Shown here: positions 4,193 through 57,820 of the stretch, piece by piece
Layout: each line of letters begins with the position of its first letter
Numbering within the stretch: the stretch's first letter is position 1
Source of the DNA: Escherichia coli
GTDB lineage: Bacteria > Pseudomonadota > Gammaproteobacteria > Enterobacterales > Enterobacteriaceae
DNA: 64,000 nucleotides
Reading direction: 5' to 3' (one strand)
Assembly: GCF_003334305.1 (NCBI RefSeq)
Contig: NZ_QOWS01000007.1
The notes under the pieces: generated by a model
The model's database searches: none
Told to the model about the DNA's origin: nothing
The model's input: only the letters and a program-made list of their open reading frames with translations
Position numbers and translations under genes: made by a program

Positions 4193-4387
4193 TTACTTTG
4201 CTCCATTCCGTGCTGGCTGCGCTTGCGGCCAGCATACCTCACTTCTCGTGATCAAGATCACATTCTCGCTTTCCCCTGCGACACGGGTGTCGAATCCATT
4301 TTTTGCTGAACGTTAATGACCATCATTTTTGTACCGTTCAGAATCCAGTCAATACATAACTTATTGAATATATTGAGTTAATCAGAA

Positions 4388-4403
4388 TGGCATCCTTTAT
4401 GCA
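4388..4403 (+). promoter_or_regulatory. sigma-54 (-24/-12) promoter of the hyf operon
   Basis: TGGCAT-N5-TATGCA with GG and GC 12 nt apart, matching the TGGCAC-N5-TTGCA consensus, about 40 nt upstream of the hyfA ATG. Confidence 0.55.
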
Positions 4404-4444
4404 ATATGAAATGCAATGTTTCATATCATTTTCAAGGAGCCGAC

Positions 4445-5062
4445 ATGAACCGCTTTGTGGTGGCCGAACCACTGTGGTGTACAGGATGTAATACCTGTCT
4501 CGCTGCCTGTTCGGACGTGCATAAAACGCAAGGTTTACAGCAACACCCGCGCCTGGCCCTGGCGAAGACGTCAACACTCACTGCCCCTGTCGTGTGTCAT
4601 CACTGTGAGGAAGCCCCTTGCCTGCAGGTCTGCCCGGTTAATGCCATCTCCCAGAGGGATGATGCGATCCAACTCAACGAAAGCCTCTGTATTGGCTGCA
4701 AGCTTTGCGCCGTGGTCTGCCCATTTGGCGCAATCAGCGCTTCAGGAAGCCGTCCGGTGAATGCCCCTGCGCAATATGTTTTTCAGGCTGAAGGCTCACT
4801 CAAAGACGGCGAAGAAAACGTGCCGCCCCAACATGCATTGCTGCGCTGGGAACCGGGTGTCCAGACCGTCGCGGTGAAATGCGACCTGTGTGATTTCTTG
4901 CCAGAAGGTCCGGCCTGCGTTCGCGCTTGCCCGAATCAGGCGTTACGGCTGATCACCGACGATAGCCTGCAACGACAGATGAAAGAAAAACAGCGCCTTG
5001 CCGCAAGCTGGTTTGCCAATGGCGGGGAGGATCCCCTTTCCCTCACTCAGGAGCAACGCTAA
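4445..5062 (+). CDS. hyfA: hydrogenase-4 component A, 4Fe-4S ferredoxin-type subunit
   Basis: ORF 4406..5062; start at MNRFVVAEPLW after an AAGGAG RBS; multiple CxxCxxCxxxCP ferredoxin motifs; 205 aa. Confidence 0.9.
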   Translation: MNRFVVAEPLWCTGCNTCLAACSDVHKTQGLQQHPRLALAKTSTLTAPVVCHHCEEAPCLQVCPVNAISQRDDAIQLNESLCIGCKLCAVVCPFGAISASGSRPVNAPAQYVFQAEGSLKDGEENVPPQHALLRWEPGVQTVAVKCDLCDFLPEGPACVRACPNQALRLITDDSLQRQMKEKQRLAASWFANGGEDPLSLTQEQR

Positions 5063-55570: not shown

Positions 55571-56416
55571 ATGTCCACGACATGGTTTGTAGGAGCCGAC
55601 TGGCTCGCCGAACATATTGATGACCCGGAAATTCAGATTATCGATGCCCGCATGGCGTCGCCTGGACAGGAAGATCGTAACGTTGCTCAGGAGTATCTGA
55701 ATGGACATATTCCCGGCGCAGTGTTTTTTGATATCGAAGCGCTTTCTGATCACACTTCCCCGCTTCCGCACATGCTGCCGCGCCCGGAAACGTTCGCCGT
55801 GGCGATGCGTGAATTAGGCGTTAACCAGGATAAGCACCTGATTGTCTATGACGAAGGTAATCTTTTCTCAGCCCCACGAGCATGGTGGATGCTGCGCACC
55901 TTTGGTGTAGAGAAAGTGTCGATTCTGGGGGGTGGACTTGCAGGCTGGCAGCGCGATGATCTGCTGTTAGAAGAAGGTGCAGTAGAGCTGCCGGAAGGAG
56001 AGTTTAACGCCGCGTTTAATCCTGAAGCCGTGGTGAAAGTAACCGATGTATTATTGGCAAGCCATGAAAATACGGCGCAAATTATTGATGCCCGCCCGGC
56101 TGCACGTTTTAACGCAGAAGTTGATGAACCTCGCCCAGGTTTACGTCGCGGACATATTCCCGGAGCACTGAATGTTCCGTGGACGGAACTGGTGCGCGAA
56201 GGCGAACTAAAAACGACCGATGAACTGGATGCGATATTTTTTGGTCGCGGCGTCAGCTACGACAAACCAATTATCGTCAGCTGCGGCTCTGGTGTAACGG
56301 CAGCCGTGGTTTTGTTAGCACTCGCGACGCTGGATGTGCCAAACGTGAAACTGTACGACGGCGCATGGAGTGAATGGGGCGCGCGGGCAGATTTACCGGT
56401 TGAGCCAGTGAAATAA
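55571..56416 (+). CDS. sseA: 3-mercaptopyruvate sulfurtransferase (rhodanese family)
   Basis: ORF 55412..56416; start at MSTTWFVGADWL after GGAG (281 aa). Confidence 0.9.
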   Translation: MSTTWFVGADWLAEHIDDPEIQIIDARMASPGQEDRNVAQEYLNGHIPGAVFFDIEALSDHTSPLPHMLPRPETFAVAMRELGVNQDKHLIVYDEGNLFSAPRAWWMLRTFGVEKVSILGGGLAGWQRDDLLLEEGAVELPEGEFNAAFNPEAVVKVTDVLLASHENTAQIIDARPAARFNAEVDEPRPGLRRGHIPGALNVPWTELVREGELKTTDELDAIFFGRGVSYDKPIIVSCGSGVTAAVVLLALATLDVPNVKLYDGAWSEWGARADLPVEPVK

Positions 56417-56437
56417 GCTTTATACAGGCAATAAAAA

Positions 56438-56462
56438 ACCGCCGAATTTGGCGGTTTTTTAT
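56438..56462 (+). terminator. rho-independent terminator of sseA
   Basis: aaaaaaccgccgaatttggcggtttttt: 6-bp GC stem followed by T6. Confidence 0.7.
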
Positions 56463-56606
56463 TGCTGGTCTGGTTCGCGGCCTTTCCAGCAGGTTGTATT
56501 ACCGTAGTAATGCAAGCGCGTCTCAGCGGAGACAATACTCGCCAGTAACTCTCTTTTTGTCAAGCAAAAGAGAGTTATTATTGTTCTGTTAGTGTATTAT
56601 CCACTG

Positions 56607-56910
56607 CGGCCCTTTCCGCCGTCTCGCAAGCGGGCGCTGGCTTAAGGAAAGGATGTTCCGCGACCGTTAGAGCAAGCGCGTCTCAGCGCTTGCTATCGCG
56701 GCAATATCGCCAGTGGTGCTGTCGTGATGCGGTCTTCGCATGGACCGCACAATGAAGATACGGTGCTTCTGTATCGTACTTATTGTTTCTGGTGCGCTGT
56801 TTTCCCAAGTAAATAATAACCGGAGTCTCTCCGGCGACAATTTACTGGTGGTTAACAACCTTCAGAGCAGCAAGTAAGCCCGAATGCCGCCCTTTGGGGC
56901 GGCATATTTT
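56607..56910 (+). ncRNA. ryfA: probable RyfA small RNA locus
   Basis: Structured 490-nt sseA-sseB spacer ending in a plus-strand intrinsic terminator (gccgccc-tttg-gggcggc + atatttt) at 56886..56910. From memory, ryfA lies between sseA and sseB; 5' end and strand are inferred. Confidence 0.3.
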
Positions 56911-57711: not shown

Positions 57712-57820
57712 GGGCGCAAATGCCTGATGCGCTACGCTTATCAGGCCTACAAGGGATTCGCAATTTGTTGAATTTGCAGAATTTGTAGGCCGGATAAGGC
57801 GTTTACACCGCATCCGGCAT
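57712..57820. repeat. REP/BIME cluster between pepB and sseB
   Basis: gcctgatgcgctacgcttatcaggcctac and taggccggataaggcgtttacaccgcatccggca REP-type palindromes. Confidence 0.5.

Follow-up and report, generated by a model that had tools for sequence, protein, structure and literature searches.

The closest described system to the locus examined here is timPR of Salmonella enterica (Andresen et al. 2020, PMC7667032; Eleftheraki and Holmqvist 2024, PMC11228461; Eleftheraki et al. 2026, PMC13000454). Salmonella TimP is translated and located in the inner membrane, and its over-expression leads to leakage and growth arrest; a start-codon mutant is no longer toxic (PMC7667032), and nonsense or missense mutations in the timP ORF remove the toxic effect (PMC13000454). 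Translation of timP is blocked by TimR, a divergently encoded sRNA (PMC7667032). The Shine-Dalgarno (SD) sequence of timP is trapped in stem-loop SL4, a pseudoknot between SL1 and SL3 is essential for initiation, and TimR, which attaches to the active fold at SL2, destabilises this pseudoknot (PMC11228461). Pairing of site 2 with site 4 opens SL4, and pairing of site 1 with site 2 locks the inactive state (PMC13000454).

The DNA analysed here was a 64,000-nucleotide stretch of Escherichia coli contig NZ_QOWS01000007.1 (hereafter, the window), in which an ORF is housed in the spacer between sseA (end at 56416) and the convergent sseB (end at 56909). In a first-pass annotation this ORF had been proposed as a candidate TimP-like toxin gene inside a putative ryfA sRNA, with reference to a Salmonella ryfA transcript coding for toxic TimP under antisense sRNA control. 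Reading the sequence directly reproduced the position and translation given there: on the plus strand, ATG at 56752 through TAA at 56875-56877 specifies the 41-codon peptide MKIRCFCIVLIVSGALFSQVNNNRSLSGDNLLVVNNLQSSK. A second in-frame ATG lies 12 nt upstream of 56752, for which reason the ORF listing starts the frame there (56740..56877, 45 aa). The basic N-terminus and hydrophobic stretch described earlier were recovered as MKIR followed by a 13-residue run, CFCIVLIVSGALF, with a mean Kyte-Doolittle value of 2.78 (residues 18-41, -0.69), so that the basic tip and signal-sequence-like hydrophobic segment of the TimP family are present in the window peptide. The ORF also lies, as had been noted, just upstream of a plus-strand terminator, consisting of a hairpin at 56884-56905 and a T run. 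Many complete E. coli chromosomes match the 504 bases around the ORF with 100% identity, and the region is present in all 5426 complete E. coli genomes. Two minus-strand ORFs overlapping the locus (41 and 63 aa) were without family match or annotation.

When the 305-nt RNA was shuffled 2000 times with dinucleotides preserved, an ATG-initiated ORF of at least 41 codons arose on the same strand in 25% of the shuffles. The presence of the ORF alone is therefore no more than chance gives, and comparative analysis was needed, since the ORF by itself would not have revealed a toxin gene; what gives it weight is the evidence from comparison, which is strong.

The RefSeq timP coding sequence WP_001385884.1 corresponds exactly to 56752..56877 in identical E. 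coli sequences, and the same locus of K-12 MG1655 carries timP (b4812), timR (b4811) and ryfA (b4440). Against the NCBIfam profile NF040796 (toxic_TimP, 40 positions, curated cut-off 45 bits) the peptide scored 79.6 bits over residues 1-40. The proposal of a TimP-like toxin within ryfA is thus upheld by RefSeq, by NCBIfam and by the orthologous K-12 locus. The comparison with Salmonella TimP suggested in the first-pass annotation gave 59% identity over 39 residues (BLASTP, E = 2e-13), with 15 of the first 16 residues matching. The Salmonella sequence was taken from the profile protein search, in which S. enterica TimP (P0099, 38 aa) shows the Leu18, Ala20 and Asp21 features of the studied protein; TimP-named proteins were returned by this search in Escherichia, Shigella, Salmonella, Citrobacter, Erwinia and Kalamiella. 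Owing to its word-match limit, the single-peptide protein search reached no further than Escherichia and Shigella, apart from two partial entries that carry the label Klebsiella pneumoniae. Separately, a plasmid search returned mislabelled E. coli chromosomes together with true Yersinia and Serratia plasmids, none of which bears on the window. By every sequence-level criterion tried, the feature is a member of both the TimP and the ryfA families, and we put at roughly 85% the probability that the ORF is E. coli timP, orthologous to the toxin gene in the timPR type I toxin-antitoxin locus of enterobacteria. The coordinates of the features are collected in the table.

Table. Features of the putative timPR locus in the window, with positions of published Salmonella residues mapped onto it
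Feature	Position	Strand	Basis
timP mRNA (former RyfA sRNA); 5' end probably at 56606-56608	56606..56910	+	Rfam RF00126, alignment with K-12 ryfA
Probable -10 element TATTAT of the timP promoter	56595..56600	+	TAnnAT conserved
SL1, in the 5'UTR; holds pseudoknot site 1, CGCUGGC, 56635-56641	56612..56651	+	Rfam structure mapped
Salmonella G33 / C34	56640 / 56641	+	Published numbering mapped
Site 2, GACCGU; pairs with the SL4 5' arm or, in the inactive fold, with site 1	56662..56667	+	Positions of PMC13000454
Salmonella C57-G59	56664-56666	+	Published numbering mapped (PMC13000454)
SL2, predicted TimR binding site	56672..56693	+	17 nt (56672-56688) complementary to the TimR 5' end
SL3; holds pseudoknot site 3, GCCAGUG, 56709-56715	56695..56728	+	Rfam structure, pairing counts
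Salmonella G102 / C103	56709 / 56710	+	Published numbering mapped (PMC13000454)
SL4; weak SD GGA (56742-56744) in the 3' arm; 5' arm 56729-56734 is site 4	56729..56748	+	Invariant pairs; PMC11228461, PMC13000454
Salmonella G125 / C138	56732 / 56745	+	Published numbering mapped
timP CDS, predicted small hydrophobic inner-membrane toxin TimP	56752..56877	+	Sequence, RefSeq, NCBIfam, frame conservation, Salmonella identity
Intrinsic terminator of the timP mRNA	56884..56910	+	9-pair stem with 7 G-C pairs, T run (terminator scan)
timR, putative antitoxin sRNA TimR, ~96 nt; 5' end probably at 56527-56528	56432..56528	-	K-12 b4811 homology, conserved architecture
Probable timR promoter: -35 TTGACA (56563-56558), 17-nt spacer, -10 GAGTAT (56540-56535)	56535..56563	-	Upstream alignments

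The Rfam ryfA model RF00126 (gathering score, 80 bits) matched the transcript region at full length (model positions 1-296 of 296) with 317.9 bits, which substantiates the earlier placement of the ORF within a ryfA RNA. The K-12 ryfA annotation aligns from 56606, and the Salmonella numbering fits base for base when +1 is set at 56608; the ORF start, at +145 in Salmonella (PMC7667032), then falls on 56752. A TAnnAT hexamer was found at the -10 place in 14 of 14 aligned upstream regions. A plus-strand promoter proposed by scan (TTGTCA-16-TATTGT, 56557-56584) is unconserved, and the conserved TATTAT was preferred to it.

The folds of the 5'UTR were assessed in an alignment of 17 sequences. The nested Rfam structure was 95.7% paired, compared with 38-49% when the pairing partners were slid; helices of the SL1 region were 97-100% paired, the SL2 helix was 96.6% paired, and in SL4 all seven of seven pairs were invariant and 100% paired across seven genera. 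The 7-bp pseudoknot between sites 1 and 3 was 96.6% paired against 28-69% in slid controls, with compensatory changes at 3 of its 7 pairs, and compensatory changes were also found in four pairs of the terminator helix. The 6-bp pairing of sites 2 and 4 was 98% paired; since site 4 does not vary, compensatory changes are absent there. The site 1-site 2 lock comprises 5 bp with co-variation in most species; in the window allele a C.A mismatch (56641/56663) leaves three contiguous pairs, and the switch in the window may therefore not behave exactly as in Salmonella. The published control elements, namely the SL4-held SD, the pseudoknot, the site 2-site 4 pairing and a divergent TimR, are all present in the window.

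With regard to the divergent RNA, an exact 17-nt direct repeat was found (56512-56528 and 56672-56688, E = 5e-5), so that a minus-strand transcript starting at about 56528 would be perfectly complementary to SL2. The duplex between the first 40 nt of TimR and the 5'UTR was calculated at -45.8 kcal/mol, about 5.7 sd below shuffles (-26.4 +/- 3.4 kcal/mol); RNAduplex was limited to these 40 nt since full-length TimR gave an over-extended duplex. The 3' end of timR lies at a bidirectional terminator common to sseA (hairpin at about 56438-56455). The upstream regions of 14 loci share one architecture, in which the bidirectional terminator, two hairpins, a variable recognition stretch, nAnTAT and an invariant minus-strand TTGACA were found; the timR -35 element (TGTCAA on the plus strand) was invariant in 14 of 14 upstream alignments, with nAnTAT at the matching distance. 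From this homology and consensus we infer the timR promoter and the transcript ends. A palindrome at 56544-56579 that contains both divergent -35 hexamers was considered as an operator and discarded, as it occurs only in the allele type of the window, K-12 and E. whittamii and is absent from O157 and the other genera. The TimR region also gave a sub-threshold match to Rfam AgrB (29.8 bits against 40). The recognition stretch varies by lineage, and it matches its own SL2 in most lineages examined and in 10 of 10 E. coli loci; such matched stretches are best read as co-evolution of antitoxin and target.

Taken together with the Salmonella work, from which we infer toxicity, membrane location and switch mechanism for the window allele, these elements suggest the following course. 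In its 3' half the ~300-nt transcript long called RyfA, read here as an mRNA, codes for the 41-residue peptide. By analogy with the Salmonella orthologue, TimP would insert into the inner membrane via Sec and, when over-made, cause leakage and growth arrest. Translation would be restrained by the mRNA's own fold, with the weak SD GGA held within the invariant hairpin SL4, and initiation would require both the SL1-SL3 pseudoknot and the pairing of site 2 with the SL4 5' arm, by which the SD would be freed; the alternative site 1-site 2 pairing would keep the RNA inactive. The 5' end of TimR (minus strand, ~56528 to 56432) would pair with SL2 at 56672-56688 and destabilise the active fold, so that TimP would be produced only upon TimR depletion.

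Conservation of the coding frame was examined in ryfA loci of species-representative genomes, which were found by a scan with the loose SL4 pattern GCGGTCNNNGCANNGACCGCAC. The scan returned at least 120 stretches, of which the majority were fortuitous matches in G+C-rich genomes; at least 19 of the loci were from Enterobacterales, with no Salmonella among the matches listed. Complete homologues (n = 16) came from E. coli, E. whittamii, another Escherichia, Citrobacter, Superficieibacter, Yersinia (five), Pantoea, Erwinia and Rahnella (three); in a 17th, from Y. proxima, the frame is still open where the end of the locus cuts the sequence. In all 16 complete homologues, covering seven genera, a frame of 38-41 codons starts from the same ATG, located 1-2 nt past SL4 and forming the end of the invariant motif GACCGCACAATG, and length differences consist of whole codons only. 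Mean pairwise diversity at codon positions 1, 2 and 3 was 0.336, 0.238 and 0.446 (order 3>1>2), and mean pS, pN and pN/pS across genera were 0.57, 0.27 and 0.48, respectively; the other two frames over the same span contain 0-4 stops. The codon-level comparison proposed in the first-pass annotation therefore came out on the side of a coding frame, with the ORF kept in 16 of 16 homologues, whole-codon indels and coding-like substitutions.

Within E. coli, 60 genomes were drawn at even intervals from the similarity ranking of 5426, and 59 of them have timP annotated by PGAP. Among ten E. coli alleles, codons 1-16 showed zero amino-acid change (pN = 0, pS = 0.03), whereas codons 17-41 were almost neutral (pN/pS 0.76), which points to strong protein-level constraint on the N-terminal half and very little on the polar tail. 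This pattern agrees with the N-terminus being the conserved part of TimP (PMC7667032), and part of the N-terminal conservation could stem from the RNA hairpin over codons 1-12. For the whole ORF, pN/pS within E. coli was 0.63, compared with 0.07 for each of the flanking genes, sseA and sseB.

These data bear on the reading of the transcript as a purely non-coding RNA in E. coli, with the 41-codon frame a by-product of RNA-structure conservation and without functional product. Such a reading could draw on the frequency of ORFs of this length among the shuffles, on the hairpins that overlap the first 12 codons and on the fact that the peptide has gone undetected in E. coli or Shigella (PMC8205139, PMC13188913). 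It is hard to square, however, with the conserved translation-control apparatus, with a frame that is open in all 16 complete homologues at a mean pS of 0.57, with whole-codon length changes and with the ordered diversity of codon positions, or with a Salmonella orthologue that is translated and toxic, loses toxicity with its start codon (PMC7667032) and is inactivated by nonsense and missense changes in the ORF (PMC13000454). We consider it very unlikely.

Translation might instead start at the upstream in-frame ATG at 56740, giving 45 residues (MDRTMKIR...), as in the ORF listing, in the 45-aa product predicted in a UPEC study (PMC8205139) and in a few database proteins beginning with MDRTM or MDRAM (P0020, P0087). 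Rahnella, Erwinia and Y. similis have AAG in place of this codon, whereas ATG 56752 is invariant; the upstream ATG lies at the junction of the SL4 loop and 3' arm without an SD before it, and RefSeq, the K-12 annotation and the Salmonella experiments all use the downstream ATG. The longer product was accordingly rejected as highly improbable, its start being unconserved and without SD.

The first-pass annotation had left coding status in doubt on two grounds, the want of a strong SD and an alternative frame, both of which exist as described. The sole SD-like stretch before the ATG is the GGA in the hairpin 3' arm, and a weak, hairpin-held SD turns out to be a feature of the published timP mRNA (PMC11228461, PMC13000454). 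The alternative frame runs from GTG 56724 or ATG 56727 to 56816 (30 or 29 aa), and other Escherichia have it open as the window does. As the true coding frame it is scarcely credible: ATG 56727 is AAG in 10 of 11 aligned non-Escherichia sequences, its stop shifts and its length changes by amounts that need not be whole codons, the seemingly conserved start RS.HGPHNE merely mirrors the invariant SL4 nucleotides, and there is no NCBIfam match. It was rejected, neither its start nor its end being conserved.

The more substantial alternative is that of a dual-function RNA, which in E. coli would act mainly as the regulatory sRNA RyfA (in stress resistance, fimbriae, motility and virulence) with the TimP frame as a second, rarely used function. 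None of the papers found reports TimP production or toxicity in E. coli, and both are shown for the Salmonella gene only (PMC8205139, PMC13188913). In UPEC CFT073, destroying the ORF did not keep ryfA alleles from complementing all phenotypes of the ryfA mutant (PMC8205139). The peptide was undetected in Shigella dysenteriae and APEC FY26 according to the APEC study (PMC13188913), in whose own strain loss of timR had minimal effects and loss of ryfA had effects; the APEC phenotypes hinge on the RyfA/TimR balance (PMC13188913). RyfA is further reported to be bound by ProQ in APEC (PMC10664665), and within E. coli the constraint on the C-terminal half of the ORF is weak. On the other hand, the conservation of frame, start codon and translation-control apparatus across seven genera would be hard to explain if translation were irrelevant, and the co-variation of TimR and SL2 fits toxin control, though a pair of sRNA and sponge would fit too. 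We hold the dual-function reading to be possible rather than probable; it overlaps the explanation as a toxin gene rather than excluding it.

Under the preferred reading as timP, the recognition sequences within E. coli merit description. The TimR/SL2 recognition sequence is GCAAGCGCGTCTCAGCG in the window type, GCAGGTG(C/T)TTCACAGC in the K-12 type and CAGGCACCCCACAG in the O157 type, and some E. coli strains, K-12 included, carry an additional non-cognate or orphan TimR copy. It is tentatively proposed that timPR in E. coli falls into at least three recognition types, in each of which TimR and SL2 have co-evolved, with an extra TimR copy in some strains. If true, E. coli would keep diversified antitoxin specificities, possibly limiting cross-talk between duplicated or exchanged modules; the divergence of the spacer between strains, up to ~8%, would be explained; and the window allele, with its mismatched site 1-site 2 lock and FSQ at codons 17-19, could differ in the leakiness of toxin expression. 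A description of these types and of the extra K-12 TimR copy was not found in a non-exhaustive search of the literature, and the matched types together with the non-cognate K-12 copy form the only, mildly new thread of the analysis. Its discovery value is otherwise small, as the gene, the antitoxin RNA and the processing-free translational switch are already known, published and in standard annotation. The locus serves rather as a case study in which a 41-codon frame without a strong SD, in an RNA long filed as non-coding, is probably a tightly controlled toxin gene. It also touches the question whether E. coli uses TimP itself or the RNA mainly as a regulator, a question for which the window allele would be well suited, as its timP is intact and stands beside one TimR that matches perfectly.

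Compared with known systems, the locus is most like timP/timR of S. enterica (PMC7667032, PMC11228461, PMC13000454), with which it shares the RNA family RF00126, the protein family NF040796, a location downstream of sseA and beside sseB, and a TimR that is encoded divergently and pairs with SL2 through its 5' end; SL1-SL4, the pseudoknot and the site 2-site 4 pairing map base for base. The window peptide is longer (41 aa against 38 aa), and its C-terminal half is unrelated in detail and without the predicted signal-peptidase site at Ala20-Asp21. The extra gene STM2534, found between sseA and timP in Salmonella, has no counterpart at that place in the window; the TimR/SL2 recognition sequence is different, and the site 1-site 2 lock is mismatched and may be weaker. 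Only with the Salmonella gene have toxicity, membrane location and the switch been put to the test, and the likeness of the window locus is read from sequence.

K-12 timP occupies the orthologous locus and has an ORF of equal length, with a 93% identical peptide (38 of 41 residues) and a 94-95% identical RNA. Residues 17-19 are FSQ in the window and LTE in K-12, and the K-12 recognition sequence is of another type. K-12 carries a 325-nt tandem duplication that places a second TimR-like copy, of the window type, next to timP, whereas only one TimR, matched perfectly, is present in the window. RyfA1/RyfA2 and RyfB1 of Shigella dysenteriae (Fris et al. 2017, via PMC8205139 and PMC13188913), compared by description and through database TimP proteins, belong by these accounts to the RNA family of the window transcript and likewise have, on the upstream side, a complementary sRNA that is divergently oriented. 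In their tandem arrangement the ryfA copies described there resemble E. coli strains with two timP copies, the window having one copy; RyfA1 and RyfA2 are presented in the same accounts as sibling non-coding sRNAs that affect virulence, with the peptide not found.

Among other type I modules, the E. coli pairs tisB-istR1, shoB-ohsC, zorO-orzO and dinQ-agrB (PMC7667032) likewise combine a small hydrophobic inner-membrane toxin and a hidden SD with an adjacent, divergent antitoxin sRNA that pairs in the 5'UTR far from the ribosome binding site. Sequence similarity between TimP and the TisB, ShoB, ZorO and DinQ toxins is none, and unlike these modules, which rely on nuclease processing or standby sites, the timP mRNA is activated by refolding alone (PMC11228461).

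The antitoxin gene timR, divergent from the small-toxin gene timP, resembles a direct repeat of the timP 5′UTR in collapsed form, of which the opposite strand is read; the coordinates of these and the other features are collected in the table. The segments common to timR and the timP 5′UTR are GGCCTTTCC..., GTAGTAAT/GTTAGA, GCAAGCGCGTCTCAGCG and CAATACTCGCCAGT, and this resemblance suggests that the TimR antitoxin was derived from the toxin leader through partial duplication. Because the leader-repeat remnant is retained in timR, pairing in the predicted TimR duplex extends to the ACCGU of site 2. Between timR and timP lies a 14-pair palindrome (AGTAACTCTCTTTTTGTCAAGCAAAAGAGAGTTATT), whose loop carries overlapping -35-like hexamers in opposite orientation (TTGTCA on the plus and TTGACA on the minus strand); the alleles of the window, K-12 and E. 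whittamii have this palindrome, which is absent from O157 and other genera.

At least three matched types of the recognition sequence, by which TimR pairs with stem-loop SL2 of the timP 5′UTR, were distinguished among the E. coli alleles (window, K-12 and O157 types; loci L123-L130), and in L125 an extra distal TimR-like copy has a fourth type. E. coli strains diverge unusually strongly in the ryfA region, by up to about 8%, and this variable patch explains much of that divergence. In K-12 the timR-containing segment is tandemly duplicated with 82% identity between the copies. The distal copy is the annotated timR (b4811), which pairs with K-12's own SL2, one G.U pair included, and is followed by a ryfA remnant (the first ~25 nt). 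The proximal copy, which is unannotated and adjoins timP, has the window-type recognition sequence and is non-cognate to K-12's SL2. The window, in contrast to K-12, holds a single timR copy, perfectly matched to SL2.

Coordinates of features in the window and in comparison loci from other genomes
Feature	Sequence	Coordinates	Strand
timR part resembling the timP 5′UTR	window	56480-56545	
Corresponding part of the timP 5′UTR	window	56608-56712	
ACCGU of site 2	window	56663-67	
Palindrome between timR and timP	window	56544-56579	
Recognition patch, SL2 and TimR	window	56672-56688; 56512-56528	
Duplicated timR segment	K-12 (L122, NC_000913.3)	954-1150; 1279-1472	
Counterpart of the duplicated segment	window	56430-56622	
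AgrB match	Pantoea latae (L102)	1439-1519	
AgrB match	window	56430-56511	-
Ysr224 family and ryfA with replaced 5′ part	Y. similis (L115)	4361-4467; 4554-4837	
ES036 (CssrF) match	window	57743-57784	-
timP codons 17-19	window	56800-56808	
Truncated ryfA	E. coli P276M (L131)	1501-1668	
Two timP copies	E. coli 806883-9-2019 (L123)	1647-1772; 2329-2454	

Rfam 15 seemingly contains no TimR family. AgrB, the antitoxin RNA of dinQ, matched the TimR region of Pantoea latae with 40.7 bits (gathering score, 40) and that of the window with 29.8 bits; since the terminator makes up most of the match, a false positive between families is the probable explanation. Y. similis has another sequence in place of the 5′ part of ryfA (SL1) and, directly upstream of ryfA, a match to the Rfam family Ysr224 (133.9 bits); a cognate TimR repeat was not found in the 500 nt upstream. 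Separately, the sseB-pepB spacer of the window gave a sub-threshold match to the ES036 (CssrF) sRNA (29.7 bits; gathering score, 37.6; E = 0.003).

Within timP, codons 17-19 form a hypervariable patch where the hydrophobic segment of TimP ends, in a region that is single-stranded in the Rfam model. Here five of the 9 nt differ from K-12 (TTAACCGAG to TTTTCCCAA), giving FSQ in place of LTE; in other Escherichia species the three residues are FSE.

Sequences similar to ryfA/timP, 72-76% identical in the 5′ 130-200 nt, were also found on 60-118 kb plasmids (H85-H89) of Yersinia and Serratia (NC_011759.1 of Yersinia pseudotuberculosis; Serratia sp. JSRIV001/002/006; Y. similis CP007231.1), some of which are predicted to be conjugative and one of which has timP annotated. 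Four E. coli 'plasmid' matches were records of 1.4-4.9 Mb and are therefore probably mislabelled chromosomes.

Among 5426 genomes, 5603 matching places were counted, with at most three in any one genome, and about 22 genomes had no match at ≥80% query coverage. In one genome of the sample, E. coli P276M, ryfA is truncated after about 168 nt, timP is not annotated and sseB is frameshifted; database records of E. albertii (P0016) and of some E. coli (P0033) carry deletions in which SL4 and the start codon are lost. In E. coli 806883-9-2019 the module is duplicated in tandem, the two identical timP copies being separated by a partial sseB pseudogene, an arrangement reminiscent of RyfA1/RyfA2 of Shigella.
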